Virus record (IMG/VR): IMGVR_UViG_3300045988_133735
Origin: a virus
Length of the DNA stretch: 64,000 nucleotides
Reading direction: 5' to 3' (one strand)
The notes under the pieces were generated by a model that searched no databases, had not been told where the DNA came from, and saw only the letters and a list, made by a program, of their open reading frames with translations. The position numbers were made by a program, and so were the translations under genes. Below, in pieces: positions 1,581 to 61,954 of the stretch (position 1 is the stretch's first letter; the number at the start of each line of letters is the position of its first letter).

Positions 1581-4500
1581 TTAACGTCTATTCAGTTCCT
1601 GTACAACCTTGTTCGGCAGACGATTTACCAACTCACGAGCCAGTGCATCGCTATCACCAACGGGATTGTTCACATTCACATCACCAATAGACAGGGAAAT
1701 ACCACCAGCGTCGCGGCTTTGCACCATAGAAGCAGAACTATGTTTTGCCAATTGATCGCTGAACCACTTGTCTGGATTGCCGCCCATCTCAAACAGGCGA
1801 GAGGTAATATCAGCAGGAACAACACCATCGCCAGTCTCAAGATATGTATAACGTCCAGAAGCTGGCTTACGAACAATAAGTTCTGAACCTCTTTCGTCAA
1901 CGTTTGCAAAATGATTCGTTTTAGAAGATTTAAGACCATTCGCGTGACCACCCAAAAAGAAACCAGCAAAACCTCCCAAAAGAGTACCAATCAATGCTCC
2001 TACAGGTCCACCTATTGCCATACCCGCAGCTGCGCCCAGACCAGCACCAGTAAGAGTTGTAGCAGCCGTTTTGACTGTTTTATCTTCATTGGCGGTTGCG
2101 TCATTCTTTTTGTCTGTTTCGTCAGTTGCTTTATTCTCTTCTTTAGATACGATCTGTGTAGCGTTAATTGTGAGATTTGTTGCGCTCTTTTGTGTGTTTT
2201 CGGCAGTTTCAGAACTACTATTCGCAGTGTCTTTTGTATTCTCGGCAGTTTCTTTACTCTTGCCGAAAATATCCTTACACAGATTTACGATTCCACCAAT
2301 AGGACTTATGTCCCAGAAGAACGAAGCAACGGACTTTATTGCCTTCTTACCAAAGCCATCTTCTTTATTGGACCAGATTTTCTTCTGATTCTTCATGGCC
2401 TTTGTGCCGCCATAAATACCAAGCCCGCCAGCTGCAAGAATCGGAATCGCAGCGGGCCCAGCAGCAGCCAAGGCGCTTCCAGCTGTACCAATAAGTTTTC
2501 CAGCACCAGCAAGCAACTTACCTCCGCCACTAAGTAATGTAGTTCCAACCTTACCAATCCCGCCAAGAATCGTGGAACCAATCTTGCTCTTACTAACAGC
2601 ATTACCGACAGCCTTAAATCCGTTTACAACTGTGGAAACAATGCCGCCGCCTTCGCCGGAACCGCCGAATAGGCTTTGAGCGCCACCTTTGATCGTGTTC
2701 CAAATATTTGTAAACGCATTGATAATTCCATTGCCAGAACTTACAACCTGTTTTGTAATATTGTTATTCGCGGTTGTTAATATGTTCTTTAATGCGGTTC
2801 CCGTTTCTGTTGCAGTATCAACGAGCGTGGTTTTGACAGCGTTGACTGCCTGCTTGGCTGCATTAACATAAGATGTGCCAGAACTTGCAGCCTTTTCGCC
2901 ACCATTATTTAAGAATCCTTTTATCGTATTCCACAGACCTTTTGTGCCGAGATCTTTGTACTCACCAGTCTTAAACATGGAATACAGATTATTTAGTTTT
3001 GTTAGCGTATTTATCAGTGATTCAAGGTTTGTAATCAAATTCTGGATGCCGGTGATCGCGCTGCCAGTATTTAGACTTGCAATGATCTTATTGTGATATC
3101 CGTCCAGTGAGCCTTCCATCTGAGATAGACTCATCTTCTGGATCTGCGCAGTGTACTCAAGCTCCTTCTGGTAATCCTTCCAGCTCTTGCCGATATCATC
3201 CATGACCTCAGACAACTTGTCCTTGAACTCATTGTACTTCTTGATCTGGTCGTCAATAGCCTTTTCAGCGTCTTTATTATTCCATTCACGCTGCTTGTCG
3301 GCAAGGTCTTCGCGTGCAGTACGCACATCTTCGGCGTTTGCCTGCCACTCGTAACCATTCTCAGTGTACACACGGGTCGTGCGCTGTTGCTGGGCACGGG
3401 CGAGAGCATCTTGTGCCTTGGAAAGTTCAATGGCGCGTTCAGTAGCCTCATTATTTTCTTCCAGAGCTTCCTTCTGCTTATTCAGGGCTTCAATCCGCTT
3501 GTCGATGACTTTGCCCATAGCATCGCCCCAAATCTTGAGGTCGTTATTAGATTTGTCATTTGCGGACGAAAGGAGAGAGAGGAAAGAAGAAAGGATGTCT
3601 TTTGCATCAGATAGAGCAGACTTGAAACTTTCGACCGCATTTTTCGCGTCCTCCCAGTGAGCAATCAGTTTCGCCATCACTTGGGCATCGGTTTCTTGAA
3701 CATCTTGATATTTCTGATTATAAACAGCAGTCAGTTCATCTAAAGCTGCTTTCTTGGCAGCTTCTTTATCCTCATCAGATGCGTCAGAAGAATCAATACG
3801 ACCAACTGCACGGTCATATTTTTCTTTTGCAACCTTATATTCTAAAGTCGCCTTAACCAATACGTCGTACTCTTCTTCGGTAGGAGCACGTACAGCATCG
3901 TACATCTTCTTGAGATAATCACCGTATACAGTTCCATCAAATTCCTTCATTAGTGGTTCAAGCTGCTTCACATACATATCACGCAAACCAGTTGCGTTGA
4001 TTTTATATGTTCCATCATCTTGTATGAACTGATCGAGGAAAGACTGGTCAATTTGACCGAGCTCTTGAAGAGTATCTTGACTTTTAAGACTTCCGGTTTC
4101 CTGAATCTCTTCCAAAGCGCTACGGAAAGCACTAAATGTACTCTGGAATTTATCAATTTTAGTGTTTGCATCTTCGATGTCCGTGCCAAAACCGTTCCAG
4201 AAATCAGTCATGGAGATATCGCCTTTATTCAGTTGTTCAAGGCGATTTGACCACAGCTTAGCCAGACCGGTTTGCCCACTATCATTGGCAGCATTGATAA
4301 TTTTCCCAACAAGAATTTCAGCGGCCTTCTTGATCTTGTCATCATCGACATTGAGATTTCCGTTCTCATCAAGGAAAATGCCATCGAGTTCTGGGTGCTT
4401 GGTAACTAGTTCGGTGACTTTCTTTAGTGTATCGTAATCCGCAATCTGTTCTCCATTTGCATTATCAATTTTAGACAGATCATGAAGGATCTCCATGCCA

Positions 4501-7265
4501 GACTGGAATTCGTCTGTTTTACCAGTTGCTTCATCCAGCGCGGTATTTACACCTTCAATTGCATCCTTCAGTTGATTGAGCGAAATAGTCCCGTTCTTAG
4601 CGTGAGTGTCAAGATATTCAAGGACTTGATTGTACTGTCCGATCTTACCCGTGCCATCATTTGTAGCGGCAGCATGTTTTAGTTCTGCCTGAATCAGATC
4701 TCGACATGCAGTGGCATCTACAACCAATTCATTTCCTTGCTTTTTTAAACAAGAAGTATATTTGGAGTCAAGCCCCATGAGGGATTTCATCGTGTTAAGA
4801 CTTATGCTACCCCACTTGTTGTACTCCTCCATAGCAGAAGTCAGAGTGGACCATGCGTCAAGAAGTGTTTTAGAAGAATCCGCTGCCTTGTTCGAAGAAT
4901 CAGCGGCCTTTTTCGAAGAATTGCTAAACCCATCGAGCTGATTGCGTAAACCGGCAGCACCATTCATTGCGGCAGACATATTATTTCCAATAAGCGTTAA
5001 TCTGGTGTTCAATGCGTTCATAACACCGTCAATTTTAGCTTGAACAGCGTCAGCATCTTCTCCATTGGCTGCTCCCTGTGCAGCGGCTAATGCGGCAGCA
5101 AGTTCGCCTGTTCCGACAGTGGCATCTTTCAAAGCTGGGCATAAAGCAGTAAGCTTATTCTTTTCATCTTCAGTTGCTTCAGTAAATGTCTCGGCTTTTT
5201 CTGCAGCGTCTCCCTTTGCAATCGCATTTAGTTCTGATATCGCCTGAGAAATAGCTTCCATTTGAGCTTCTGCATATTGAGTTGCCAACAAATCTGCATA
5301 CGCACTTTGATTGACTTGGAGCTTTCCATTAACAAGTTCAAGAGTATTAAGATACTGGTCATCCATTTGTAAAAGAGCCTGCAACGAATCAACGCTCATG
5401 TACCCATACTGGTTGTATTCTTCAACAGCGCTAGAACAGGCTTTGTATGCTGATTGAATATTATCGATGACGCCCATTGTTTTTTCGAGTTTATCGGCGT
5501 AATCGTCAGCAGCTGCAGAGTTACTAATTTGCACAAGACCGAAACTTTCAAACACACCAATTAGAGACTCAAATGATATTTTATTCTCGTCTGCAGTTTT
5601 ATGGAGTTTTTCAAGCGCAGCTGTTTCGGTCTCAGTTTGATGAGAAGAGTCCTTATCAATGTTGATTATTGCCTCGCCACTCATTCCACTAAATGCATCA
5701 AGCCCATTGAATGTTTTCCAATCGCTTTGCTGAGAATCACCATTGTCGATATCATTCTTGATTTGTTTTATTTTTTCTGAGAATATATCAAGATTGGTAG
5801 TGTCAATACCTGTATTATCCTGTGCATTCGCCAGAGCTTTAGTGGCTGCAGTCATTGCGTTCGTGCCGGCAACATATTCGTCCTTGTACTGAGTGAAACT
5901 GTCAGCGTCAGTCTCGTAGCTGTTCATTTGCTCAGACACGGCAGAGGAAAGCTCTTCAACCTTGGTTTTCTGGGATTTAAAAGTTTCATTCAGAGCATCG
6001 AGTTCTTTCTTTTTATTTGCATACTCTTCAGAATCTTTTCCGCTAGAAGCTTCAATTTGGTCAAGTTCAACCTGAAGATTACGACGTTTTTGAGTAGTAT
6101 CTTCGAGTGCTGCTGCATACTCATGGAGAGATTCAGTCTTAGAAACTTTCTCTGCAACCTGATGAGTGCCAGCATTTGCACCACCCTCGGCATAAGAAAC
6201 ATTTACTGTGCGGGATTTCACAATACTGTCTTCTGTTTTATCATTCACAACAGCACTTGTGTCGGCATTTGCTTTATCGTTCGCGTCCTTCTCCAGTTGC
6301 TTCTTGAGTTCGAGTTGAGCCTGCAACATATCGTTGATGGCTTGTAACCGCTCGCGCTCGGCAGGATCAACGATATCCTCGATCTTTTTAACACCAGCGT
6401 CCTTCAGAGATTTGTTAAGCTCGTCAATCTTGGACTGAATCTCTTCAACATCCTTAGTGGCTTGCTGTGCAGCATCGTGAGAATCATTCATTGCAGCGAC
6501 AAGTTCTTCAGAATGCGTTTTTAGGTTCATAAGATAATCGACAATTTTAGTTGCGATAAAGGCAACAGCAGCTACACCAAGAGAGAGGAGAAGTTGTTTG
6601 CCATATTGAGCTACTACATTCCAGGCCTTTTGAGCCGCAGTAAGAGCTACTGTGGCGACCGTGCTCATCTGTTTAACGCTAATTTCTTTCAAGAATGCTT
6701 GAGAAAGTTTATAGACACCATTTTCTTGTTCTAAAATTCCAGCGTTGAACAGTTGTTGCGTTTTACTTGCATCGGAACAATGATTGGCGTAATCTTCCAT
6801 CAAAGCAATAGCATCTTGTGTGTTTGGAAGTGCGAGTACCCCTTTAGCGTCTTTTAACCCGCCTGCCTTCATGAATTCGTTCAGAACACCATTTGTAATG
6901 CCGTCTTTTTGAGATGCTATTTGTTCAAATAATTGAGAATTGAATTTTTCACCTGTTTGAACAGCATTTTTTGTATTTTCAATATAGTCCTCTAAGCCTT
7001 CATCAAAAGAAGACAAACTGAGAAATGCTTTTTGTTGAGCTTCGTCAAGATTTACAAATTGCGCAATAAATCCATCAATGCTTCCAATATCGTTAAAAAT
7101 TGAATGACTATCAAATTTTTTTGCATTTCCGATTTGATAATTTCCCAAGAGCATATATTTCTGAAGGATTTGCGGCAAATCTTTAAGCTGCTCTGACGCT
7201 TTTAATGTTTTATCAAGAGATCCATCTAAGGTCGTTAATTCACCTATTGACTTGTTGATTGTCAA
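1581..7265 (-). CDS. Giant (1894 aa) coiled-coil tail protein carrying the C-terminal hallmarks of a tape measure protein
   Basis: Long Ala/Glu/Lys/Gln coiled-coil composition. Gly-rich hydrophobic segments (..GGGKLLAGAGKLIGTAGSALAAAGPAAIPILAAGGLGIYGG..). C-terminal ..NVDERGSELIVRKPASG..GDGVVPA.. resembles the conserved tape-measure C-terminus. Starts with TTG and has no Shine-Dalgarno upstream. Confidence 0.6.
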   Translation of the reverse strand: MTINKSIGELTTLDGSLDKTLKASEQLKDLPQILQKYMLLGNYQIGNAKKFDSHSIFNDIGSIDGFIAQFVNLDEAQQKAFLSLSSFDEGLEDYIENTKNAVQTGEKFNSQLFEQIASQKDGITNGVLNEFMKAGGLKDAKGVLALPNTQDAIALMEDYANHCSDASKTQQLFNAGILEQENGVYKLSQAFLKEISVKQMSTVATVALTAAQKAWNVVAQYGKQLLLSLGVAAVAFIATKIVDYLMNLKTHSEELVAAMNDSHDAAQQATKDVEEIQSKIDELNKSLKDAGVKKIEDIVDPAERERLQAINDMLQAQLELKKQLEKDANDKANADTSAVVNDKTEDSIVKSRTVNVSYAEGGANAGTHQVAEKVSKTESLHEYAAALEDTTQKRRNLQVELDQIEASSGKDSEEYANKKKELDALNETFKSQKTKVEELSSAVSEQMNSYETDADSFTQYKDEYVAGTNAMTAATKALANAQDNTGIDTTNLDIFSEKIKQIKNDIDNGDSQQSDWKTFNGLDAFSGMSGEAIINIDKDSSHQTETETAALEKLHKTADENKISFESLIGVFESFGLVQISNSAAADDYADKLEKTMGVIDNIQSAYKACSSAVEEYNQYGYMSVDSLQALLQMDDQYLNTLELVNGKLQVNQSAYADLLATQYAEAQMEAISQAISELNAIAKGDAAEKAETFTEATEDEKNKLTALCPALKDATVGTGELAAALAAAQGAANGEDADAVQAKIDGVMNALNTRLTLIGNNMSAAMNGAAGLRNQLDGFSNSSKKAADSSNKAADSSKTLLDAWSTLTSAMEEYNKWGSISLNTMKSLMGLDSKYTSCLKKQGNELVVDATACRDLIQAELKHAAATNDGTGKIGQYNQVLEYLDTHAKNGTISLNQLKDAIEGVNTALDEATGKTDEFQSGMEILHDLSKIDNANGEQIADYDTLKKVTELVTKHPELDGIFLDENGNLNVDDDKIKKAAEILVGKIINAANDSGQTGLAKLWSNRLEQLNKGDISMTDFWNGFGTDIEDANTKIDKFQSTFSAFRSALEEIQETGSLKSQDTLQELGQIDQSFLDQFIQDDGTYKINATGLRDMYVKQLEPLMKEFDGTVYGDYLKKMYDAVRAPTEEEYDVLVKATLEYKVAKEKYDRAVGRIDSSDASDEDKEAAKKAALDELTAVYNQKYQDVQETDAQVMAKLIAHWEDAKNAVESFKSALSDAKDILSSFLSLLSSANDKSNNDLKIWGDAMGKVIDKRIEALNKQKEALEENNEATERAIELSKAQDALARAQQQRTTRVYTENGYEWQANAEDVRTAREDLADKQREWNNKDAEKAIDDQIKKYNEFKDKLSEVMDDIGKSWKDYQKELEYTAQIQKMSLSQMEGSLDGYHNKIIASLNTGSAITGIQNLITNLESLINTLTKLNNLYSMFKTGEYKDLGTKGLWNTIKGFLNNGGEKAASSGTSYVNAAKQAVNAVKTTLVDTATETGTALKNILTTANNNITKQVVSSGNGIINAFTNIWNTIKGGAQSLFGGSGEGGGIVSTVVNGFKAVGNAVSKSKIGSTILGGIGKVGTTLLSGGGKLLAGAGKLIGTAGSALAAAGPAAIPILAAGGLGIYGGTKAMKNQKKIWSNKEDGFGKKAIKSVASFFWDISPIGGIVNLCKDIFGKSKETAENTKDTANSSSETAENTQKSATNLTINATQIVSKEENKATDETDKKNDATANEDKTVKTAATTLTGAGLGAAAGMAIGGPVGALIGTLLGGFAGFFLGGHANGLKSSKTNHFANVDERGSELIVRKPASGRYTYLETGDGVVPADITSRLFEMGGNPDKWFSDQLAKHSSASMVQSRDAGGISLSIGDVNVNNPVGDSDALARELVNRLPNKVVQELNRR

Positions 7266-7275
7266 ACTGTATACT
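7247..7275 (+). promoter_or_regulatory. Sigma70-type promoter for the plus-strand cassette
   Basis: TTGACT (7247-7252), 17-nt spacer, TATACT (7270-7275). Overlaps the 5' end of the minus-strand giant ORF. The -35 lies in a small inverted repeat, TTGAC..GTCAA. Confidence 0.6.
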
Positions 7276-7323
7276 AATCTTAGTGGTCGGCAAAGATTAT
7301 TTGTGAAATAGGTGATAAGAATT

Positions 7324-7929
7324 ATGAGAATTGGTGAAATCGAAGCAGATATTGACTATAGACACGGCAAAGCGAATAAATGGGGCTTTTGGACAATAGG
7401 AGCTTTAACTGCTGAGGGAAAAAAGATTCTGAAAAAGTATCCAGACTATAAAATCCTAAAAGATGATTGGAGAGTAAAAAATGATGACGAATTTTTTGCA
7501 TCAGTTGTTTATGCCTATATGGTTGATTGTATTTTACAAGAATACAGCGACAACGAATATTTAATGAATGAATATGTAAAAGCAACCGAAGATAAACTAG
7601 CGACTCGCCCAAGCGGAAAAGGAGAGATGTCTCGCAAAGGTATAAACGAAGCATTCTTAAAGTCGTTCGAAGATTATATAAAAGAACAAAATAATCCCGG
7701 TATACTTAAAAGAGAACAAGAACAAGAAGAAAAAGAAAGAGCAGTAGCGCGAGCGCTTTCAGCCGAATACGAAGCAAAACATCCTCATATCACTTGTCCC
7801 TACTGCAAATCCACGAACACCGAAAAGATCAGCACCGTGAGCCGCGCTGTGTCTGTGTCCCTCGTGGGCGCTGCCAGCGGGAAGATCGGCAAACAGTGGC
7901 ACTGCAAAAACTGCGGCAGTAATTTTTAA
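7324..7929 (+). CDS. Hypothetical protein (201 aa) with C-terminal four-Cys zinc ribbon
   Basis: ATG 7324 with GGTGA 7 nt upstream (the track start 7312 is GTG). C-terminus reads CPYC..(36 aa)..CKNC. Confidence 0.55.
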   Translation: MRIGEIEADIDYRHGKANKWGFWTIGALTAEGKKILKKYPDYKILKDDWRVKNDDEFFASVVYAYMVDCILQEYSDNEYLMNEYVKATEDKLATRPSGKGEMSRKGINEAFLKSFEDYIKEQNNPGILKREQEQEEKERAVARALSAEYEAKHPHITCPYCKSTNTEKISTVSRAVSVSLVGAASGKIGKQWHCKNCGSNF

Positions 7930-7941
7930 AGGAGAATTAAA

Positions 7942-8277
7942 ATGAAAGTCAATCAGGACATTATGAACCTCATTTGCAAGCTTGAATACAGAATTGGCGA
8001 CACATGTGCAAATAGCGACTCGTACAACGGATGGACTGATGAATGGGGCGCTGATTTTCGGTATCCTGTAACCGTTGACGGCCATGGGAAATTCAGAGGT
8101 CGAATTGACGATCTTGGACTTGAACCGGAATCGCTTGGCGATATCTATTATAAATTTGGCGCAAACGAGATGCATATTGGGTACGGTATCAAGCATGTCC
8201 TAGAAGAGCTTGAAGATTTATATGGTCTTGATTTTGTAAAGCTTGAAGCAGAGCGGAAAGCAAAAGCGCAGAAGTGA
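7942..8277 (+). CDS. Hypothetical protein (111 aa)
   Basis: AAAGGAG lies 7 nt upstream of the ATG. Tightly packed after the previous plus-strand gene. Confidence 0.6.
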   Translation: MKVNQDIMNLICKLEYRIGDTCANSDSYNGWTDEWGADFRYPVTVDGHGKFRGRIDDLGLEPESLGDIYYKFGANEMHIGYGIKHVLEELEDLYGLDFVKLEAERKAKAQK

Positions 8278-8353
8278 TTGTATTACCAGCAAAACCTAGT
8301 AAACAATTCTATCGTAAGAACTGTGGGTATGAATGGTAAGGATGTGAACCAAG

Positions 8354-8920
8354 TTGTCTTTGGTGATGGCAATTGTATGCACTGACGGAATCGTTGTATC
8401 TGGCGATTTTAGAAGATCGAGATCTATCACAAATCCACAAACAGGGGATAAACAAGTTGTAGAATTTTACGACGATACGCACAAATTGATTAAAACAAAA
8501 TCCAATCGTGTAGTTGGCCATACTGGAGACTACTCTTTCAACAGCGGAGAATTAGTAGAAGACACGATATGCAGTGTGCTGCAATTGACAGACGCACTGA
8601 ATTCTCCAATTGATAGTGAGTTTGCGTATCTTGTTAGCTCCATTAGACATAACAAAAACTCACTCATTGAAGCTGGTATTATAAACGGACATAGAATTGT
8701 ATTGACATGGAAACAAGGCGAACCAATTAAACAGATAGTTATAAAAGGATGCGCAATTGGAGATATTGATGTATTCGAAAAATATAAAGAGGAATTCGAA
8801 TGTGAAATACAAGATATAACAATTAAAGAAGCTGTCCCTTTATTGCAAAAATATAACAGACTGATTGCGAGCGAAACGCCTACGATTAGTCCAGACTGTG
8901 AAGTAATGATCATTGAATAG
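8354..8920 (+). CDS. Proteasome beta / HslV-like Ntn-hydrolase fold candidate (188 aa)
   Basis: The N-terminus (M)SLVMAIVCTDGIVVSGDFRRS.. matches the remembered family pattern TTIxxxxxxDGVVxAxDxR. ..HKLIKTKSNRVVGHTGDYS.. resembles the Lys33/GxxGxxxD region. TTG start. The assignment is motif-level only. Confidence 0.4.
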   Translation: MSLVMAIVCTDGIVVSGDFRRSRSITNPQTGDKQVVEFYDDTHKLIKTKSNRVVGHTGDYSFNSGELVEDTICSVLQLTDALNSPIDSEFAYLVSSIRHNKNSLIEAGIINGHRIVLTWKQGEPIKQIVIKGCAIGDIDVFEKYKEEFECEIQDITIKEAVPLLQKYNRLIASETPTISPDCEVMIIE

Positions 8921-9160
8921 TTATGCTTGCCACCCGGAACAAACACATTTTATATAGTTTGCCCCATCTTTGGATAAAATATAATATTCGTCTTCATGCG
9001 GCTCGATACAGTTAATATTTTCTTCTTTTTCAAGTTCAACAAAACCTTTTTGATTACTTTCGCGATAATAAAATTTCTTATATGTCACTGTATCTCCTCC
9101 TTCCATCGAAATATAGCAAAAGCCCGGCCTCCCAGCAATAGGGAAGTCGGGCTTGTTCAT
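8921..9160 (-). CDS. Hypothetical protein (79 aa), uncertain
   Basis: ORF convergent with 8354-8920; the two stop codons abut. No recognisable SD before the ATG. Composition looks protein-like. Confidence 0.3.
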   Translation of the reverse strand: MNKPDFPIAGRPGFCYISMEGGDTVTYKKFYYRESNQKGFVELEKEENINCIEPHEDEYYILSKDGANYIKCVCSGWQA

Positions 9161-9179
9161 TATGATGACTGCACAGCAG

Positions 9180-9512
9180 TTACTTCAGAAGTTCAGCAAT
9201 CTCTTCAGCAGTCATACCGCTGGCCAGTGCATTGGCAACAATATCTTCTGCCTTTTTACGATTCAGCTCTGCCGCAATCTTTTCGTCAGCATCAGCCTTT
9301 TTCTTTTCGAGCTTTACAATCTCTTTGTTGAGTTTTTTCAACTCTGCTTCTTTTGCTTTACGCTGGGCGTTCAATGCAGCGATATTATCACCAATAGTTG
9401 CAATCTCCTGAGCAATAGATTCTGCGGCAGTATTCTTTTCAGCGATCTGTGCTGCGTAATCGATACCATCGAGAACCTTTGCTTTATTCTTGCTTCCTTT
9501 AGTACGTGCCAT
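9180..9512 (-). CDS. Lys/Ala/Glu-rich coiled-coil protein (110 aa)
   Basis: GGAGGT lies 8 nt upstream of ATG 9512-9510. Sits directly downstream of a perfect consensus promoter. Confidence 0.65.
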   Translation of the reverse strand: MARTKGSKNKAKVLDGIDYAAQIAEKNTAAESIAQEIATIGDNIAALNAQRKAKEAELKKLNKEIVKLEKKKADADEKIAAELNRKKAEDIVANALASGMTAEEIAELLK

Positions 9513-9566
9513 AATAAAATACCTCCACTACATGCGTTTTGTTTACATGTTGTTTTTAATATTTTT

Positions 9567-9595
9567 ATTATAGCCAGAAATACTAAGATAGTCAA
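9567..9595 (-). promoter_or_regulatory. Perfect-consensus sigma70-type promoter (minus strand)
   Basis: On the minus strand: TTGACT (9595-9590), 17-nt spacer, TATAAT (9572-9567). Confidence 0.7.
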
Positions 9596-9847
9596 CAAAA
9601 ATATTTTTCCACTTTTGACGGCAGGGGAAAGACCGCCTGTAATTTTTCCGCTGGAGCGTGTTGCGCCAGCAGTGATTTGGAGCACCCCATAGTGAATCTG
9701 CGGCGTTGTTACGCACGTAGTTCCACTCCGACATTATGCTCTCTGAAGCGTCTCTGGCAGTGCCTATTATAATAATGTAGGCGCATGCAGAGCTTGCCTG
9801 CGGATTCCTTTCGGTTCCCGGACGAGAATTACCCAAACTCGCCGTGG

Positions 9848-12800
9848 CTAGGCCACCATGTTCGTCGGTTTTACTAAATACTCCCTCATGCTTCGCAATG
9901 ATATAATAAAATACCTGCGGAGCACTTGTTCCGTGTCACCACCCGGAGTATTGCTGGGCACAATCATGAAACCCGTCATTTTGGGTTTACCCAGCTGAGT
10001 TGCAAATGCTGTGATGCCCAGTCCAGCAGGAAGGGCACCAGTGAGATTAATGATTTTATCAAGAAGTTTAACAATGGATGTGAGGAAAGATACGCCGCCC
10101 TTCACGAGGCCAGAAGAGAGAACGTCTTGAGAAAGGACTTGGAAGCTTGCATCGAGCTGTGCGAGACGGCCATTGATACTGTCGAGATACTTCTCGTTCT
10201 CTTCCCATGCCACGTTGGCGCTGTTAGCAGCGGATTCCATAGCAGATTCAGCAACGTCAAAGTTGTTTAGAATAGCACTAACTGCATTTGCGTTTCTCTT
10301 TCCGCCAATCATTTCAGTAACATTTGCCTGCGTTACATCGGACAGACCACTCCATACTTGAGACAGCTCTTTCATGATTTGATATGTACTCTTGAAATTT
10401 TTGCTATCCAGCATGATGTCAACGCCAGTCAGAGATTTCAGTTCACTGCGGAGCTCAGACACAGAATTGGCCATACCGTCAACTTCAATACCTGCATTCT
10501 CTGCGTCACTTTTAGCAGCACGGAGATACATTGACAAACTTTTTAAAGTTGTACCGACCGTATCTGCATCTTGGATAACTGCGTTTGCAGCAGTACCAAG
10601 CGCGATAGTTTCTTCCAGCGTATTATTAGCGGCCGACATAGCAGCAGAACTGCGAGTCAAGATTTCGCCAAGGTCTTTTGCAGTAACGGGCTGTGTATTT
10701 GCGACAGCGTCAATTTTATTAACGACATCTTCTGCTTGATCGGCTAACAGTCCAAAGCCTTGTAAAGTAGAAATCAAATACGAAGACGAGGTGTTAACGT
10801 CATCGATATTATCGCCAACGTTACGAAGTAGGGTAGAGTAGGTTGCTAAATTCTCGGCGTCTTCATCAGAATAACCAAGCCGCTTCCAATCTGCGGTTGA
10901 ATTAACATAGTCACTTATAGATACGCCTAACTTTTGAGCCTGTTCTGCGGCACGTCCCATATACTCTTCAAGGGATTTTCCTGTATACTCACTGACTTTT
11001 CTTAACTCAGTTACTGCCGTATCAATTTCGACCACATTCTGATACACGATCCGCAACGCGTCTTGCATCTTGTGCAGTGCTGCCATAGTGATCATAGTAC
11101 TCAAATGCTGGCCAAACAGTTTTTCGAACACATCAAGCAGATTTTTTGATTCGAGACCCAACTTTTTAGATTCAGCGCGAAGCTCTGCATATTTCTTTTT
11201 CAGTTCACCAATTTTCTCTGGTGCGTCACTTTGATTCAATGCTTCAAGCAACTCATAGAGAGACTTTCCAACGTCTGTTCCGTCAAGCTTTTTATGTTCT
11301 GCAATATAATCATGAATAGTTGCCTTCAGATTAGCGACTTCCATTGATGCCTTATTTATAGATTTTTCACGAGAGGCTTCTTTATTGAAATCTTTTGCTT
11401 CTTGTGTTGCTTCTCTATAGGCGAGGTGTAATTGATTTATTGCATCCGTTACAGAATTAATTTTATCTGGAGATATACCAAGGTTATTCTGTGCCCATCC
11501 TTTGGCAGCTGATACCGGATCTGAAGATTCGTTTATCGTATCGAGTAAAGTTTTGAGCTTTGAATCTTTTTCTTGTAGTTTGCCATAAAAAGAATAATCA
11601 GTACCATAATTCTTCTGGACATCCTTCATTGTGGCCCTATTTTGAGATATTGCATCGCTGACAGATTTTAAGTTTGATATCTTTGTACTTTCTCGTTTTG
11701 CGGCTTGGTTTTCCGCCTCTTCGACGGCTTTAACTTTTCTTTCGATTTCTTCCCAAATCTTTTTGACTTCTACAAGTTTTTCTTTATAAGCGTCAGTTTG
11801 AGGCTCAAGCTCATTTAACTGCTTGAGAAGATTATCGATACCATCAAATTTGACATTCTGGAGACTTCCATCGGCCTGCATCTGTCGAGCAACTTCAACA
11901 CCCTCGGCAATTTTGATACCTTCGCGTTCAAGTTTCTTATAATTGCTCTTCCAAATGGTGTATTGCGCGTTGGCTTTGTAAGATTCACGCTTTAGCTCAT
12001 TATAATCAACTGCATAATTCTCGTATGTGTTTGGATTTTGAGCGCTAAGTGTGGCCGCTTTGGTGATAACTCCATTAATAGAATTCTTTAATTTCTCGTT
12101 AGAACTGCCAGAGGCTTCTTCTGCAAGCTGATAGAACTTCTTTTCAATACTATCAACGGCTTTCGTAAGGTCTTTTTGCTTCTTTTCTACGGTATCTATA
12201 ACTGCCACAACAGATTTCCAGTTTTCTTCTGCGGCTTGAATTGCGTTGTTGTACTCTTCTGTACCAACCTTTGCTTTAGCGATCTGTGATACAAGTTCTT
12301 GCTGCTTTTGAAGCGCGACTTGGATATCCGTCGCCGTTTTACCCTCCGCTGCGGCTTCTTCTACTGTTCCATAAGTTTTTTGAGCGCCGGACAGTTGATT
12401 TACAAGATTTTGATATTGGTCGTTGCGTTTATTTTCTACGGCACGATTAGATGAACGGTATTCCTTTTCAGCCAAATCTGCTATATCGCGAACGTCTGTA
12501 AACTGATAGGGATTTACACCAGTGGAATCTTGGAAATTAAACATCAATTCAGAAAGACGAGTTTCTTCTTCTGCCAACTGCTTGTTTACTTCATCCAAAT
12601 CCTCTTTATCTTTTGCATCAACAAATCTACCTCTTTGTTTTTGCAGAGATATGATTTTCTGATAACTTGAAACAATATCGTCGATAGCTTTACTTCCATC
12701 AGAATTATCCTTCTTCTCTTGTGCAATAATATCGCGGGCAAGAAGTTTATTTTCTGCTTCTTCTTGCTTTTTGGTTGCCTCAGCGGCTTTTTCTTTCGCT

Positions 12801-15481
12801 TCTGTTTCTTCTTGTAATGCTTTTGTCGCTTCTTGTTGAATCTTTATGGCTACCTGTTGTTTTGCAATATCAAATTTATTATCAGAACTTGCTTGTGCAT
12901 AATAATATTTAAGTGCCTGTTTACGAATACTAGTGACTTTTAATGGATTATATCCAACTTCGCTTGCAGAAAGCATTTTTTCATTAAGCTCTGCTTCATC
13001 GGCAGAAATTTGATCTTCAATTTGGTGTAAGTCAAATGCCTGCTCTGGCTTTGTATATCTTCCACGTTTGCTTTCTAAACTAGTAAGTTCTCGATAGATA
13101 GATTCAATGGCTTTTAAATTATCTAACTCTGCTTGATCATATTTCTTCTGTGCAGTAACTACATCTCGATTAAAAGATCTATTTTCAGCATCAGCCTTTT
13201 TTTGAGCAGCATCAGCGATTTTTTGTTGAAGCTGTTCTTCTTGCTGCAACAATCTATTAGCTTCTTGTTGTGCTTTTACGTCTATAATGTTTGAATCTAT
13301 TTTGGATTTTGTGGTTCCCTTCTTCTTGGATTCTTTGCCAGCCGCTTCTTTAATTGCATCAACAATCTTCGCATTTTTCAGAATCAGATTGCCCGCGATA
13401 TCGAATTCCTTTTTCGAAATCTCAACATCATCAATCTTGACATCAGCTGCTTTGATTTTTACAGAGCCATTAAGTTTCAGGGGATCTGGTCTCTTGATAT
13501 CTTCATCTTTGAGTTCGACCTTGCCCTTTAAATCAATGACATCAGGTTTTTTAACATCATCCTTTACGTTCTTCTTTTTGCCCTTGGCGGTATCGTTAAC
13601 CGTAACGTTAGACACTTTGCCTTCCAGTTCGACTGCCGTTTTCGGAGGAGTGATGTCAGAAACCTTAAGTTCAACCTTACCGGGGATTTTCACAGATCCC
13701 TTCGGAGGAGTTACGTCTTCTACTTTAAGAGTTACCTTGCCGGGAATATTAACCGGTGCAGTCGGATCAACCGTGACAGTTCCGGGAATAGACACAGGAT
13801 TTTTGACATCCACGACAACGTCTGCATCTGTGATAGTAACTTTACCACGTATCGGCACAACATCATTAGCATTACTTTGATTATCATTCTTAGGGATATC
13901 TGGTTTATCAGGTTCATTTAACGATTTATTCAACTCATCTTTAACATGTTTTGCTGCATCTTTTTTAAGATGGAGATCAATAGGGGCTGAAATATCTTTA
14001 AACGCCTCATCAACTTTAAGCTGAAGAACGGCCGGATCAATATCGAATTTAACGTCTTTTACATTATAGACCCCGTCTTCAATCTGATTTTTTCCACCAC
14101 TATTTTGAGCGGCTTGCATTTTAATTTCTTGATTCTTGATAAAATCTGCGAGGTTTGTTGTTTCTGCAAATTTTGCAATTTTATCTGTATCAAATTTCTT
14201 GAAAAGGGCTTCATATTGCATGAGTTCATTCGAAAGTCCTTCGCGTGTTAGCACTGTTGCGGCGAGAATGCTTTTTTCTAAATCCACAGCAGTTTTACGC
14301 GCATCATTGATTGCATTCTGTTTATCTGCAATATTGCTCAATACCTTATCGAGTTTTTGCCCATACGTTTCAATAGTCGAAGCGTCTAAATGCCCAGAAG
14401 TGTCTGTTTTTTGTGCAGCGTTCGCTTCTTTTTGGACGTCTTTTATTTCTGCCTTAACAGCCTTTGCACTAGAGTTAATTTCTGATATTTTAGCATGGAC
14501 ATTCCCAAGCTCACCTGATACATTGTCCAGGACAGAATTGAACGATATTTTATTATCACCAGTTAATCCGTTTATTAACTTGGAAAAATCCATGACTTGG
14601 TCAGTTGTTTTAAATGCGTCTTTTGATTTATCAATAATCTCATCTAAAAAATCATCGATGGACATGAATTCTTTCAGCTTTTTGTTTAAATCAAAACCCT
14701 GTGCATTAAAGACATCCAATTTATCTTTGAATTTGTCTGAATCAAATGCAGAATATACAGAATCTAAAATTGATTTTAATTCTTTTGCCTTACTTCCAAG
14801 CTGAGTAAATTGATCATTAAATGCATTTATATTAATTTTATCGTCATCTAACCAATTGTCTGCATATAATCCAGCCCAAATATCTTTTATTTCATTTACA
14901 AGATTTTCGACTTGAGATAAATTTCTTTTCTTTGTTGTATCTGAAATTTTATAATTCAATAAATCGTTGATATTAAAAGTCCCAGATAAACCACCAACAA
15001 ATTCATCACTTACCTCATTCGCAACTTGTTTAGCAATTGTTTTGAATTCTTTCGTAGGGAATATATCATTTACAAAAGAACCCAATCGATCTGTATTACT
15101 TGTTAAATTTTTTAGATAATAACTTAATTGTTGATTGACTTCTTTTAGTTGATTTTTTAACTGCTTAGTCAACTCACTCGAAAAATCATCAACGTTAACA
15201 CCAACAGTAACTTTCGGAATATCGCCAATGCCGTTAATTTGCTGTTGAATATCAGTTTTTAGTTTTTCAGTATCGACAACAGGCGTTATACTTGCAGTTG
15301 CCTTGATGTTTTTTAATTTATCTTCGACCTTCTTTTTTATGCCATCAACATTAGGGTCAATATCAATCTGTGGCTTTTCACCGCTTTGTTTTACTTTTCG
15401 CTCAATGCTCGTCTTTAACTCTGTTGGTTTGATTTGTGGATCTACCTTAACTTTGATACTCAGTTCTGGTTCACGCGCCAT
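9848..15481 (-). CDS. Giant (1877 aa) coiled-coil protein with a tape-measure core region near its C-terminus
   Basis: Residues ~1480-1720 (..QKLGVSISDY..ISTLQGFGL..NKIDAVANTQPVTAKDLGEILTRSSAAMSAANNTLEETIALGTAANAVIQDADTVGTTLKSLSMYLRAA..) look like the TP901-type tape-measure core, followed by a hydrophobic segment. The N-terminal ~1450 aa is coiled coil with internal repeats. Confidence 0.6.
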   Translation of the reverse strand: MAREPELSIKVKVDPQIKPTELKTSIERKVKQSGEKPQIDIDPNVDGIKKKVEDKLKNIKATASITPVVDTEKLKTDIQQQINGIGDIPKVTVGVNVDDFSSELTKQLKNQLKEVNQQLSYYLKNLTSNTDRLGSFVNDIFPTKEFKTIAKQVANEVSDEFVGGLSGTFNINDLLNYKISDTTKKRNLSQVENLVNEIKDIWAGLYADNWLDDDKININAFNDQFTQLGSKAKELKSILDSVYSAFDSDKFKDKLDVFNAQGFDLNKKLKEFMSIDDFLDEIIDKSKDAFKTTDQVMDFSKLINGLTGDNKISFNSVLDNVSGELGNVHAKISEINSSAKAVKAEIKDVQKEANAAQKTDTSGHLDASTIETYGQKLDKVLSNIADKQNAINDARKTAVDLEKSILAATVLTREGLSNELMQYEALFKKFDTDKIAKFAETTNLADFIKNQEIKMQAAQNSGGKNQIEDGVYNVKDVKFDIDPAVLQLKVDEAFKDISAPIDLHLKKDAAKHVKDELNKSLNEPDKPDIPKNDNQSNANDVVPIRGKVTITDADVVVDVKNPVSIPGTVTVDPTAPVNIPGKVTLKVEDVTPPKGSVKIPGKVELKVSDITPPKTAVELEGKVSNVTVNDTAKGKKKNVKDDVKKPDVIDLKGKVELKDEDIKRPDPLKLNGSVKIKAADVKIDDVEISKKEFDIAGNLILKNAKIVDAIKEAAGKESKKKGTTKSKIDSNIIDVKAQQEANRLLQQEEQLQQKIADAAQKKADAENRSFNRDVVTAQKKYDQAELDNLKAIESIYRELTSLESKRGRYTKPEQAFDLHQIEDQISADEAELNEKMLSASEVGYNPLKVTSIRKQALKYYYAQASSDNKFDIAKQQVAIKIQQEATKALQEETEAKEKAAEATKKQEEAENKLLARDIIAQEKKDNSDGSKAIDDIVSSYQKIISLQKQRGRFVDAKDKEDLDEVNKQLAEEETRLSELMFNFQDSTGVNPYQFTDVRDIADLAEKEYRSSNRAVENKRNDQYQNLVNQLSGAQKTYGTVEEAAAEGKTATDIQVALQKQQELVSQIAKAKVGTEEYNNAIQAAEENWKSVVAVIDTVEKKQKDLTKAVDSIEKKFYQLAEEASGSSNEKLKNSINGVITKAATLSAQNPNTYENYAVDYNELKRESYKANAQYTIWKSNYKKLEREGIKIAEGVEVARQMQADGSLQNVKFDGIDNLLKQLNELEPQTDAYKEKLVEVKKIWEEIERKVKAVEEAENQAAKRESTKISNLKSVSDAISQNRATMKDVQKNYGTDYSFYGKLQEKDSKLKTLLDTINESSDPVSAAKGWAQNNLGISPDKINSVTDAINQLHLAYREATQEAKDFNKEASREKSINKASMEVANLKATIHDYIAEHKKLDGTDVGKSLYELLEALNQSDAPEKIGELKKKYAELRAESKKLGLESKNLLDVFEKLFGQHLSTMITMAALHKMQDALRIVYQNVVEIDTAVTELRKVSEYTGKSLEEYMGRAAEQAQKLGVSISDYVNSTADWKRLGYSDEDAENLATYSTLLRNVGDNIDDVNTSSSYLISTLQGFGLLADQAEDVVNKIDAVANTQPVTAKDLGEILTRSSAAMSAANNTLEETIALGTAANAVIQDADTVGTTLKSLSMYLRAAKSDAENAGIEVDGMANSVSELRSELKSLTGVDIMLDSKNFKSTYQIMKELSQVWSGLSDVTQANVTEMIGGKRNANAVSAILNNFDVAESAMESAANSANVAWEENEKYLDSINGRLAQLDASFQVLSQDVLSSGLVKGGVSFLTSIVKLLDKIINLTGALPAGLGITAFATQLGKPKMTGFMIVPSNTPGGDTEQVLRRYFIISLRSMREYLVKPTNMVA

Positions 15482-16544: not shown

Positions 16545-17096
16545 TTAGTCCTCCTGTGTAATTTTATTTCGTTCAAGTCTCATCAGTGCGGCAGTCGCAA
16601 TACACATCGCGTCAGCTTCATCAGAAGAGACATTTTCACCATAGTGTTCGGCTACATAGTCAATAGCCTGCTGTTTTAGTTCGGGGCGTTTTACTTGCCG
16701 CCCCTGTTTGAAATCGAGCATTTTGCGCCATTCAGTCGGCTTTATGATTTCATATGGGATATTGAATAGTTCACACGCTCCAATAATCGCCCCCTGCAAC
16801 TGCGCAAGCTGAATTACTGTCTTGGCTGATGCTTGCAGCGCCACGTCTTCAATTACGACAAGATCGGGATTGTTGGTTTTGATGCGGCTCTGTATCATCT
16901 GGCGCATAATGGCGCGACGCTCAACTGGGTCTTTGGTTTTACTTAAATCAATTAGCGAGTGATATACAGTGCCGTCGTCTAATGTACAAACACCGGTCTT
17001 TATTAGCGCTTGGTCAAAAGCTAAGATTTTTATAATAAACACTTCCTTTTTGTTTTGGAATATGGTAGAATTCAAACTTGAAGAACACCTGCACAC
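16545..17096 (-). CDS. ruvC: RuvC-like Holliday junction resolvase
   Basis: ..KILAFDQALIKTG..(D)..VVIEDVALQ..LAQLQGAI..KPTEWRK..SSDEADAMCIA.. follows the RuvC/RNase H-fold acidic motif order. The true start is uncertain (GTG 17096, GTG 17042, or ATT/ATA after AAGGAAG). Confidence 0.75.
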   Translation of the reverse strand: MCRCSSSLNSTIFQNKKEVFIIKILAFDQALIKTGVCTLDDGTVYHSLIDLSKTKDPVERRAIMRQMIQSRIKTNNPDLVVIEDVALQASAKTVIQLAQLQGAIIGACELFNIPYEIIKPTEWRKMLDFKQGRQVKRPELKQQAIDYVAEHYGENVSSDEADAMCIATAALMRLERNKITQED

Positions 17097-50512: not shown

Positions 50513-51157
50513 GAATTTCCAGCAATTTCCTACATACATAATGCGAGTCCAGATGATATTATAAACGAAGTTTTCGCAGAGGGAACTCCGGTAGTGTGAA
50601 AACGCACCGCCGGGGTTTAATGCGGCTACTGGTTCTGCAGAACTGGTACTGGTCCCAAGCCCAGAAATGCAATCGCAAGTGGGGCACATAGCGTCACGAT
50701 CGAAGCGGTAGCACAAACAGAAGGGCGCTCCACTGATCCTAATGAAATTGACACTGATTTGATGTGATGGCCACACAAATATAATCAGAAGACTAAAGTA
50801 GATTAGGCAGTTCCACATTAAGTGAGCGAAACTAAACGAAAGGAGGGTTTATAGCTTGAATTGTAAAATCAGTTACCGCTCGCTAGGAGTGGTCTTTGGT
50901 GCAAGGGTCGCGTCTTACTCCAATGAGAAAATTTTCATGGGATGGCGATACAAACTGTTTTGACGTTTAACTGAAATTTCCAAATTAAATAGAATTGACG
51001 TTGCAAGTGCTCGTTGCATCCGAGCATAAGTTCGCATCATACATACGAGTTTAGCGGTAGTCGCAAATAGGCGTAATCGACCTATAAGGTTCGCTATAAT
51101 GCGGGGCTGGGTGATTCCCGAACGGACAAGTTAAACGTATGTTAAGGATAAGAAACC

Positions 51158-58264: not shown

Positions 58265-58513
58265 GCTATCTACTTTCCTCCATTGTCCTTGGGACTGACA
58301 GCCGGGAAAGACCGGCATATATCCGGGTGTAGCGAAGCTGGTATCGCGCCAAATTTGGGATTTGGAGATTTCGCCCGTTCAAGTCGGGTCACTCGGACCA
58401 TGGTGCAGGGTCTTTCCTTTCTACCTGTGCCTATTGTGTGTATAAAACGGTTTCCATTAGACGAAACCGCGTGGCTGAAAATGCCGAGCAGGTACGATAA
58501 TCCTGCCTTATAT

Positions 58514-58900
58514 GGGCCCGAAAGGTTTTCGACAGGGCTATGAAAATTCACAATTCGCAGGTCGGCCATCACCTTACGAGGCAAAAAACAATAAACGCTA
58601 ACTACAATAGTTATCGCTGCGCGGCTTGATGCCGTGCCCAAAACAGCATCCTGATAGGCAGGTAAATGTTTGATGGTTCAAAGAATAAATCCCGGAACCC
58701 GATGTAAACGGTAATAAACACCGGCGTTCTCGGACGCTAAAACCGAGTGGTGGAGTGATGTAACAAACCGTTACGTCCCTGGGTTTGCTGTGTTGGCGGC
58801 ATGAATTCCTTTCAAAAATTCTAAATGCTAACTATTGCGTAAGAAGATTGTGTACGAGTAATAGTTCTGGACGTGGGTTCGAATCCCACCGGGTCCACCA
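58514..58900 (+). ncRNA. ssrA: tmRNA (transfer-messenger RNA)
   Basis: 5' GGGCCCGAAAGGTTTTCGACAGGG and 3' GGACGTGGGTTCGAATCCCACCGGGTCCACCA. The acceptor stem has a G3-U70 pair. Candidate tag frame GCT AAC TAC AAT AGT TAT CGC TGC GCG GCT TGA (58597-58629) gives ANYNSYRCAA. 387 nt. Confidence 0.85.
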
Positions 58901-59263
58901 GTGGCGCAAGCCGCAAAGCTAGGTTCGATGCGACAGCGTAGTGTAGTGCGAGGTCGCTGGGGTGGCGCAATTCCACCGTGGATGCAATGCATTCATAACG
59001 CTTTGACCGAAATTGTGCGAACAGACTGCGACGGGGTAGCTCCTCGTGGAGTGAGGGTCTGGTGACAACATGAGTAGGCGATAGGATGACCTGCGAAAGT
59101 GGTCTAGTCAGTTTGGTGCCCGGACTGGCGGAGAGTGGATTTAAAAGGGCAGCCTTTGAGGATGGACTCTGGGGAAGACAAAATGTACCTAGTTGTATCT
59201 GCTGACGCGGTTAAGTCGCATTGCACATCGCCGATGCTGTTACATGGTTAAATCCTCCTCTCT

Positions 59264-59339
59264 GTGGCGTTAGTTCAGTTGGCAGAACACTTGGCTCATA
59301 ACCGAGTAGTCGTGGGTTCAAAGCCCTCACGCCGCACCA
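59264..59339 (+). tRNA. tRNA with CAT anticodon (elongator Met or Ile2), CCA encoded
   Basis: Cloverleaf folded by hand: acceptor GTGGCGT/ACGCCGC, D arm GTTC/GAAC, anticodon loop CTCATAA, T loop TTCAAAG. One U-U mismatch in the T stem. Not initiator-like. Confidence 0.75.
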
Positions 59340-59368
59340 TTTCGTGTACGAATATCAACAAATCAAAA

Positions 59369-59390
59369 AGAGGTAAATCAAAATGGCTGA
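59369..59390 (+). repeat. 22-bp perfect direct repeat, copy 1 (AGAGGTAAATCAAAATGGCTGA)
   Basis: Identical to 59625-59646. Contains the SD and the ATG GCT GA start. Confidence 0.9.
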
Positions 59391-59646
59391 GAATGCAGCT
59401 AAAAATACCGAAAGATATCAATCCTATAAACTTCAATGGATGTTGGATCATGGACACACATTAGAGGAAATTTTTAGAGAACTCTACATGATTCAAAAGG
59501 AATACTTGGAAGACGGAGAGTCATGCCCAAGCATTTGGACGTTGTTGGATCGATGGGAAAAGGATATTGGGTTTGGTGGAGAATGTTGGGCTTGCTTTGA
59601 TGAATGGCTGGAGAATGAAGGTAGAGAGGTAAATCAAAATGGCTGA
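59383..59646 (+). CDS. Hypothetical protein (87 aa) bracketed by the 22-bp repeats
   Basis: The SD and start lie in repeat copy 1. The stop lies in repeat copy 2. Confidence 0.55.
   Translation: MAENAAKNTERYQSYKLQWMLDHGHTLEEIFRELYMIQKEYLEDGESCPSIWTLLDRWEKDIGFGGECWACFDEWLENEGREVNQNG
59625..59646 (+). repeat. 22-bp perfect direct repeat, copy 2
   Basis: Identical to 59369-59390. Supplies the SD and start of the radical SAM gene. Confidence 0.9.
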
Positions 59647-60310: not shown

Positions 60311-60315
60311 TTCAG

Positions 60316-60624: not shown

Positions 60625-60628
60625 TTTC

Positions 60629-60730
60629 ATGAAGCGATACCTTGTAAGCGTTTGGATACGACAGTCTTATTCCATTTGTGGCAAAAAGCTGAGACCGGAT
60701 TCTGAGGTAGTAAGTTATGAAAAAACATAA
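60629..60730 (+). CDS. Small basic peptide (33 aa), tentative
   Basis: GGTGGAGGAG lies 8 nt upstream of ATG 60629. Confidence 0.35.
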   Translation: MKRYLVSVWIRQSYSICGKKLRPDSEVVSYEKT

Positions 60731-60941: not shown

Positions 60942-60953
60942 AAGGAGGAACGA

Positions 60954-61865: not shown

Positions 61866-61954
61866 CCTCGTAGGAACGGAGACATTAAACCCGTGTCCTG
61901 AGATCAACACAAGATCTAAAAACTGTGTGGCAGCTCGGAAAGACGAGCAAGTAT

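Follow-up and report, generated by a model that had tools for sequence, protein, structure and literature searches.

A Predicted Group I-Type Intron with a Multi-Gene, Bidirectional Cargo in the Tape-Measure Gene of a Gut Phage Clade

Introduction

Tape-measure proteins set the length of phage tails, at roughly 0.15 nm per residue. This article concerns a 64,000-nucleotide (nt) stretch of viral DNA (IMG/VR record IMGVR_UViG_3300045988_133735; hereafter the window, the whole stretch, in which all positions are counted) that carries two giant open reading frames (ORFs) on its minus strand, namely ORF A (15481-9848, 1877 aa), which is transcribed first, and ORF B (7265-1581, 1894 aa, with TTG as its called start). 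Judged by comparison with related loci, the two ORFs are most probably exons 1 and 2 of a single tape-measure gene, between which a group I-type intron would be removed by splicing. Exon 1 is placed at 9989-15481 (1831 codons, ending ...CAG CUG GGU), the predicted intron at 7263-9988 (2,726 nt), and exon 2 at 1581-7262 (1893 codons plus stop, beginning ACA AUC AAC AAG), all on the minus strand, and the predicted spliced product of 1831 + 1893 = 3,724 residues runs ...AFATQLG|TINKSIGE... (...AFATQLG|TINKSIGELTTL...) across the junction. The original prediction had proposed either that one ancestral tape-measure gene was split by an insertion and is now expressed in two pieces or rejoined, or that the phage uses two very long ruler-like proteins. 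Rejoining at the RNA level is the part of this that is upheld; separate expression of two pieces is disfavored, and the notion of two rulers is not supported, as ORF B lacks a conserved start.

Tape-Measure Identity of the Two Open Reading Frames

ORF A opens with an ATG lying 8 nt downstream of a canonical ribosome-binding site (AAAGGAGG) and, as had been noticed from its sequence, holds a tape-measure core near its C-terminus, matching Pfam PhageMin_Tail PF10145 (aa 1513-1727, 79.5 bits) and NCBIfam TIGR01760 tape_meas_TP901 (aa 1483-1829, 83.9 bits against a cut-off of 28.8 bits). Tape-measure profiles of PHROGs also match ORF A and run far past the match, as in the case of phrog_4211, which is aligned over positions 580-943 of 2625. 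ORF B gives weak matches to the tape-measure profiles of PHROGs. It is a weak yet collinear homologue of the C-terminal 1,650 aa of the uninterrupted tape-measure protein in a relative, in an alignment that takes in repeated Y..GY.s.D.LQ.L units, a coiled coil, and the C-terminal ERGSELIV block, which agrees with the earlier assignment of the remaining tape-measure parts to this ORF. The genes upstream of the tape-measure gene are virion structural genes. From the TIGR01760/PF10145 and PHROGs matches, the virion-gene context, and the C-terminal block, the joint product of ORF A and ORF B is predicted to be a tape-measure protein of the TP901 type.

The C-terminal 46 residues of ORF A, previously described as an atypical tail, correspond to the first 138 nt of the intron read in the exon 1 frame, followed by a stop (9848-9988, minus strand). 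This segment is conserved as nucleotides with RNA-type covariation and not as protein; the tail peptide starts KPKMTGFMIV..., and KPKMTGFMIVPSNTPGGDTEQVLR is the tail peptide expected from unspliced translation. At the other side of the insert, the earlier observation that ORF B has no credible start also held, since no purine-rich ribosome-binding site stands at the TTG, the frame stays open upstream to 7355, and the codon at the TTG position is variously TTG, ATG, TCG, ACG, TAG, or AAG in relatives.

The Same Interruption in Related Phages

A scan of IMG/VR yielded 80 related loci that were kept, many of them on contigs of approximately 145-150 kb. At 56 of the 80, on contigs ranging from about 45 to 150 kb, the same RNA follows directly after the same base and is succeeded by 2.1-5.2 kb of variable DNA and then by a homologue of ORF B; protein homology between the window and its relatives ends at this last base of exon 1, and the introns of the relatives (2,071-5,196 nt) occupy an identical site. 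The GenBank record MT837120, a 7.7-kb human-fecal phage scaffold that aligns with the end of ORF A, is interrupted at the same nucleotide, and since this scaffold and the 56 IMG/VR contigs share the feature, it is not an assembly accident. MT837120 was also the sole match when the insert was compared by BLASTN with 50,697 phage records. Its coding DNA is clearly diverged from that of the window up to ...ACUCAGCUGGGU / ...ACTCAGCTGGGT, and the next ~400 nt are near-identical, with paired (compensatory) changes in the RNA region (e.g., GGTGGCCT-AGCCACGG vs GGCAGCGTAAGCTGTGG).

An uninterrupted single gene, such as had been suggested might be found in related phages, does exist in distant relatives (L066-L081; approximately 50% identity in the tape-measure core), in which one ORF runs ~1,650 residues beyond the core. 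Because these relatives have a single ORF and ORF B is collinear with its continuation, the split can be taken as the derived state of one gene. Related tape-measure genes (L085-L091) also occur on contigs binned to metagenome-assembled genomes of Peptococcaceae, Oscillospiraceae, Acutalibacteraceae, Ruminococcus, and Lachnospiraceae, together with one Prevotella bin; the binning of phage contigs is unreliable, and these bins point to gut Clostridia as the likely hosts.

Splice-Site Pairing and Restoration of the Reading Frame

Exon 1 ends CAGCUGGGU in every copy, and 30 nt into the insert lies a guide region (GAUUGUGCCCAGC) containing the putative internal guide sequence (9953-9965, minus strand), which consists of GAUUGU (the P10 strand) and GCCCAGC (the P1 strand), is complementary to the exon ends, and is invariant in all relatives. 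P1 is formed by 7 pairs between GCCCAGC and the GCUGGGU with which exon 1 ends; the last of these pairs is U·G, and the helix is unchanged in 24/24 aligned sequences and in all 58 copies. The adjoining GAUUGU, immediately 5' of the P1 strand, forms P10 with an ACAAUC that begins at 7262, 2,726 nt downstream, so that one 12-nt guide is complementary to the whole of the joined exon sequence (CUGGGUACAAUC), the only wobble falling at the cleavage site. We infer that six P10 bases would match at that exact position by chance at a rate of about 4^-6. Variants of the exon 2 start are ACAGUC, in which the pair is kept as G·U, and ACAAUA, in which the last pair is lost. The base before exon 2 is G in 51/51 relatives; the two bases ahead of it vary, and several copies read TAG, so the invariant G has the behavior of a group I terminal G and not that of a start-codon base.

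When the exons were joined in silico, the frame was kept in 51/51 copies and at least 300 codons were open on both sides in 43/51. The eight short cases comprise four with a second, upstream intron, one that reaches the end of the fetched locus (also true of one of those four), one that is short by one codon, and two with early stops in exon 2 (L014, after 44 codons, and L019, after 198), which may reflect a further intron, a frameshift, or an assembly error. In the window, the predicted spliced RNA junction is CUGGGU|ACAAUC (...CAGCUGGGU|ACAAUCAACAAG; intron-less junction sequence CAGCTGGGTACAATCAACAAGTCAATG), and the predicted junction peptide includes ATQLGTINK (...AFATQLGTINKSIGELTTLDGSLDK). 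The splice-site traits of a group I intron, namely P1 with its U·G pair, P10 with the omega-G, and a restored frame, were thus all found in the comparison of relatives.

A further conserved element, a subterminal AU-rich hairpin with a conserved YGACCAY loop and a covarying stem, stands 12 nt upstream of the 3' splice site (7275-7299, minus strand), in the gap that separates the plus-strand promoter from the first gene it is predicted to drive. Its fold energies are equal on both strands, which does not tell apart the strand that uses it, and perhaps it serves the intron RNA, by bringing the distant 3' splice site to the core, or else an antisense leader. No covarying partner for its GACCA loop was found in the RNA core.

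A Conserved Structured RNA at the 5' End of the Insert

The first ~395 nt of the insert (9594-9988, minus strand) start exactly where protein homology ends and constitute a conserved structured RNA, a candidate ribozyme core extending from P1 to P9.1. The 411-nt stretch 10000-9590 folds better than shuffled sequences (minimum free energy z = -2.6), and RNAalifold recovers P1, a hairpin in the P1 loop, a CCGAC/GUCGG helix (called P3), three hairpins in the P4-P6 region, P8, and the 3' hairpin. A group I-type structure was completed by hand on alignment A2, with pairing counted on 24 sequences, and contains P1, P2, a P3/P7 pseudoknot, P6, P8, P9, and P9.1. This model is 98.1% paired by cells, against 36-44% for slid-partner controls, and compensatory (two-sided) change was seen at 9 pairs, all in peripheral helices.

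Many details of the model follow the group I plan. The loop of P2 varies between GUGA, GCGA, and GUAA and is GNRA throughout, and the junctions J3/4 (GAA, 3 nt), J6/7 (CA, 2 nt), and J8/7 (AUGGGG, 6 nt) have the canonical lengths. P6 is formed by AAGC/GCUU with a long variable extension, P9 is variable, and P7 is G(A)GAGCA/UGCUCC with a bulged A, separated from P3' by a gap of 4 nt. The P9.1 loop, CU(C/U)UCCC, is able to pair with GAGGGAG upstream of P3. The stretch AAUCCGCAGGCAAGC resembles a Q element, and GCUUCAGAGAGCAUAAUGUCGG resembles the R element of Tetrahymena, GUUCACAGACUAAAUGUCGG, a likeness that serves as a lead and not as a test. An invariant center with a covarying periphery is the pattern that a ribozyme would show.

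Several observations weigh against this assignment. The helices P1, P3, P4, P6, and P7 never vary, so that covariation neither supports nor refutes them and the central pseudoknot is not proven by it. P7 is GAGCA/UGCUC and not the consensus GACUA/UAGUC, the sequence of J8/7 (AUGGGG) is likewise atypical, P4 is weak, with only 3 pairs (CAUG/CAGG), and RNAalifold favors another pairing for the proposed 3' strand of P7. There is no conserved P9.0 pairing. At the conserved 3' end the DNA has a further role as an antisense promoter and 5' leader, which alone could explain much of the conservation there; on account of this dual coding, 3'-end conservation does not count as independent evidence for an intron, as the invariant G and P10 do. 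Finally, searches of the window, of the insert, and of the core by itself gave no match to Intron_gpI (RF00028) or any other intron family of Rfam, not even at E <= 10, and at gathering score no intron family was found at nine related loci. An alternative P4 (GCC-A-CGG with CCG-CA-GGC) was also considered and was set aside, as it clashes with helix H1, which has two compensatory pairs.

The silence of Rfam is a real but weak negative, because the td intron of T4 itself scores 40.3 bits against a gathering score of 50 bits and is detected only in E-value mode. A sister-clade element (L046:7269-7557) that aligns end to end with Intron_gpI does so at 21.7 bits (E 0.0023), and from these two scores the Rfam group I model appears insensitive to phage introns. 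The core of the window is therefore treated here as a divergent group I-type RNA or, less likely, as something that only works like one.

In this sister clade, whose tape-measure core is ~66% identical, a different RNA breaks the gene no more than a few codons away from the site used in the window (L046:7236-10200; also L047-L050 and L055). This RNA is more canonical as a group I intron; the order and spacing of its Rfam-aligned elements are those of the manual model of the window RNA. The same promoter type stands behind this RNA, and its cargo shares with the window-type introns the 112-aa coiled-coil, 302-aa zinc-finger, 111-aa, and zinc-ribbon genes, so that two different ribozyme cores are followed by the same cargo.

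L060 (6649-7964) and L062-L064 have a further insertion within exon 1 that is absent from the window; its site corresponds to a point between ORF A residues 1643 and 1644, and it measures 1,316 nt and encodes a 321-aa multi-CxxC protein with a GDYWH motif (endonuclease-like). L061 has a compact, ORF-less version of 271 nt (L061:6649-6919) with a P1-like pairing, GUCGGU/GCCGAC, and this insertion, used as a second calibration, was not detected by Rfam either.

Proposed Mechanism and Alternative Explanations

Under the favored explanation of two exons parted by a group I-type intron, a late transcript would span the whole 2.7 kb, and the first ~395 nt of the intron would fold into a catalytic core lying wholly at its 5' end. 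The guide GAUUGU|GCCCAG would pair with CUGGGU at the end of exon 1, placing U·G at the cleavage site, and with ACAAUC at the start of exon 2, and the terminal G at 7263 would set the 3' splice site. Ligation would then yield ...AFATQLG|TINKSIGE..., the protein of 3,724 residues, and the rest of the intron would be cargo, arranged as two convergent operons with their own promoters and expressible apart from the late tail gene. We infer that splicing does take place and that the core is a genuine group I ribozyme, which the 3' splice site would reach over a long distance, perhaps by way of the 3' hairpin.

The RNA might instead be excised by other means, whether as a ribozyme of a new class, by trans-splicing of two transcripts, or as a degenerate relative of group I introns that needs a protein cofactor. 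The lack of an Rfam match at any threshold, the atypical P7 and J8/7, and the weak P4 would suit such an RNA, as would a promoter directly after the core and convergent transcription inside the element, and a protein kept in every intron, with a fold that has no match (F1, described below), could be the cofactor. Set against this, the U·G in P1, a P10 on the same guide strand, and a terminal G are specifically group I logic, and the order of helices and the junction lengths fit the group I plan, matching the Rfam-aligned intron of the sister clade element by element; the idea is accordingly held to be improbable.

Separate translation of the halves into a two-chain tape measure, as in the split ribonucleotide reductase of Aeromonas phage Aeh1, would account for two halves that stay open over thousands of codons in many contigs, and in most relatives codon 7 of ORF B is an in-frame ATG, from which the second half might start. 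That codon is ATA in the window and 10 relatives, however, the TTG start is not conserved, and ORF B has no ribosome-binding site, in contrast to the strong ones of ORF A and the cargo genes. Two translated pieces would, moreover, leave the 12-nt guide, the invariant G, and the covarying 395-nt RNA unexplained, and this arrangement seems quite improbable.

That a mobile cassette simply broke the gene, leaving defective phages or remnants, is suggested by accessory-type cargo genes on both strands and by the two relatives with early exon 2 stops, yet it is very improbable in view of the same architecture in 56 contigs, of exons that are both open with the frame kept at exon divergence down to 55% identity, of structural constraint on the flanking RNA, and of the absence of target-site duplications, terminal inverted repeats, or a transposase.

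Further mechanisms were considered and rejected. For a group II intron, there was no Rfam group II match (domain V), no ORF of more than 205 aa, and no reverse transcriptase domain. An intein or split intein does not agree with an insert in which every frame contains stops, both strands carry genes, and no Hint or intein domain was matched. Ribosomal bypass was rejected because a gap of 2.7 kb greatly exceeds what it could cross. Stop-codon recoding was discarded as none of the six tRNAs found by ARAGORN in the window is a suppressor and a TAA follows within 27 codons past the TAG of ORF A.

Cargo Genes and Internal Promoters

The spacer of 2.6 kb does carry genes on both strands, as originally described; three of its ORFs belong to the plus strand and the other two to the minus strand. 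Among sigma-70-type matches sought over 7100-10100, the best in the region (TTGACT-17-TATAAT, 11/12; 9567-9595, minus strand) lies directly after the RNA core, where relatives conserve one or the other of two promoter types. The second best (TTGACT-17-TATACT, 10/12; 7247-7275, plus strand) spans the 3' splice site, and its hexamers are conserved in relatives; since the antisense -35 box, TTGACT, lies inside exon 2 (site 7262/7263), the conserved exon codons AAG UCA do double duty.

Two operons are predicted to run from these sigma-70-like promoters and to converge at 8920/8921. On the minus strand are a 110-aa gene (9180-9512; Lys-rich N-terminus, coiled coil, and a GGAGG ribosome-binding site), which has homologues in many related introns, and a 79-aa gene (8921-9160), present in 14 related introns; neither gene could be assigned to a family. 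The plus-strand genes, antisense to the tape-measure gene, encode F1 (7324-7929, 201 aa; a helical domain and a C-terminal zinc ribbon), a 111-aa protein without a family assignment, found in 36 related introns (7942-8277), and a 188-aa protein found in 10 (8354-8920), whose possibly Ntn-hydrolase-like N-terminus has a weak, below-threshold match to the connectase N-terminal domain.

F1 is the sole cargo gene present in 51/51 introns. It has 239 homologues, all unnamed, at least one of which is free-standing in a bacterial chromosome, and its AlphaFold2 model (pLDDT 82) found no fold match in the PDB. The free-standing homologue (L082:10001-10663; GCA_041328755.1) lies in an island of short ORFs between a diacylglycerol-kinase gene and groES/groEL; the diacylglycerol-kinase gene is just downstream of a ClpB-like ATPase gene, and SIR2 and HicAB genes are nearby.

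Related introns carry three to nine non-endonuclease genes on both strands. The variable cargo over the 51 introns includes a retropepsin-like aspartyl protease (PF13975) in ~32 loci and a MazF/PemK toxin (PF02452) in 4, as well as a membrane protein, the 302-aa zinc-finger protein, an Ntn-like protein, and several small proteins. A Pfam search of the five window proteins and seven other cargo-family proteins gave no LAGLIDADG, GIY-YIG, HNH, His-Cys, or PD-(D/E)xK endonuclease and no transposase, and PHROGs likewise gave no homing endonuclease in the cargo. PADLOC and NCBIfam, run on a subset of the cargo, returned only a weak candidate-defense match, for the aspartyl protease.

It is tentatively proposed that the intron is a protected landing pad in an essential late gene, a hypervariable island of independently transcribed accessory genes, although this is rather less likely than otherwise. 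The aspartyl protease and the MazF-type toxin, along with the membrane, Ntn-hydrolase-like, and zinc-ribbon proteins, may act in defense, counter-defense, or superinfection exclusion, and the RNA core and F1 would serve as recombination arms through which phages exchange cargo as well as C-terminal halves of the tape measure. In a variant of this proposal, F1 would be a new homing or maintenance factor whose promoter is completed only by the target exon.

Evolution at a Mosaic Boundary

The site of the intron and the C-terminal edge of the TP901 domain coincide exactly. Compared with the window, relatives have a median identity of 76% in exon 1 (over 385 nt, ending 15 nt before the intron) and of 86% in the RNA core; for exon 2, it is 54% over 400 nt after the conserved first 20 nt. 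In several contigs, an exon 1 that is 85-95% identical to that of the window is joined to an essentially unrelated exon 2 start, and in L065 exon 1 has 55% and the core 82% identity to the window. With similar first exons joined to unrelated second exons, and a core that outlasts exon similarity, the intron sits on a mosaic boundary. That the core is more strongly conserved than the gene around it would fit either lateral spread of the intron or its use as a recombination joint. The swapping of exon 2 across the intron boundary fits the idea that selfish elements mark boundaries of genetic exchange, and nuclease and intron loci have been described as exchange boundaries, with tape-measure genes often interrupted (Barth et al., PMC10448857).

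These findings would add a large clade of human-gut phages (~145-150 kb, with Clostridia as their probable hosts) to those with tape-measure introns, and describe a group I-type intron body that is a multi-gene, bidirectional, and highly variable cassette without a recognizable homing endonuclease. Gene callers would list two giant "tape measures," one with a spurious tail of 46 residues and the other with a spurious TTG start, where the real product is predicted to be a single protein of ~3,724 residues; at 0.15 nm per residue, this would correspond to a very long tail of ~550 nm. As Rfam misses such introns, they are probably under-counted in viromes. The answer to the main puzzle is an ordinary one; the cargo and the location at a mosaic boundary are nevertheless worth following up.

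Other Features of the Window

Elsewhere in the window, a RuvC-like Holliday-junction resolvase gene (16545-17096, minus strand; phrog_159, E 2e-25) has tail and virion genes around it, and the tape-measure chaperone region follows just downstream. The plus-strand half contains a predicted type-P5 twister ribozyme at 50575-50664 (plus strand), an Rfam match at gathering level (47.1 bits against a cut-off of 37.6 bits), and a region at 58323-63054 (plus strand) with a phage transfer-messenger RNA (58514-58900, tag ANYNSYRCAA) and six to seven tRNA genes (Pro, Met, three Leu, and Gly) that include no suppressor.

Comparison with Known Systems

The nrdB (sunY) intron of phage T4 has its ORF downstream of the core, and its far 3' splice site is set by P10, the terminal G, and 3'-terminal elements. 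The window intron resembles it in that the ORFs lie downstream of the core and the 3' splice site is remote; the T4 intron has a single same-strand endonuclease ORF and totals ~1 kb.

Interruption of a tape-measure gene by introns is itself documented. In prophages of the Bacillus cereus group, group I introns occupy three sites in the tape-measure gene (TMP-IVS1 to IVS3), some of them without an endonuclease gene (Tourasse and Kolsto, 2008, PMC2504315), and the interrupted tape-measure gene of vibriophage ICP1 is spliced (Barth et al., 2023, PMC10448857); introns also occur in capsid and tail genes of Cluster J mycobacteriophages. The window intron and the B. cereus-group and ICP1 introns share the same gene, a conserved stretch, P1 and P10 fitted to the site, contents that vary in a kept context, and copies without a homing endonuclease. 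Those introns are of the IA1 or IA2 type, measure 0.3-1.5 kb, and have one or two genes for homing endonucleases at the most, whereas the window intron has no P7.1/P7.2, holds bidirectional, promoter-bearing cargo, and is silent in Rfam, and its relatives measure 2.1-5.2 kb.

IStrons such as CdISt1 and BcISt1, which are found in Clostridia and their phages and whose splicing makes the insertion harmless (PMC4227781), are similar in having a complete ribozyme at the 5' end, a long cargo that extends nearly to the 3' splice site, and an AU-rich 3' hairpin. Their cargo is of the IS200/IS605 or IS607 type (TnpA/TnpB) on the forward strand, behind an IA2 ribozyme and at many genomic sites, in contrast to the window intron, which has a bidirectional cargo, one site in one gene, and no transposase that could be found. 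An IStron was accordingly rejected as an identity for the element, the five window and seven other cargo proteins having no transposase or TnpB by Pfam and the core having no P7.1/P7.2 and a gap of only 4 nt between P7 and P3'.

In the nrdA gene of phage Aeh1, with its homing endonuclease insertion (cited in PMC10448857), an essential phage gene likewise consists of two ORFs parted by selfish DNA. The halves of that gene are translated apart, with no RNA splicing, whereas in the window the second half lacks a start signal, and the spacer follows the splice-site logic of an intron. The earlier impression that the arrangement is unusual accordingly applies to the contents of the intron and not to the splitting (PMC2504315, PMC10448857). 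A split tape measure is of a known kind; what is new is the phage clade, the divergent core, the lack of a recognizable endonuclease, and a large, bidirectional, multi-gene cargo with promoters of its own.

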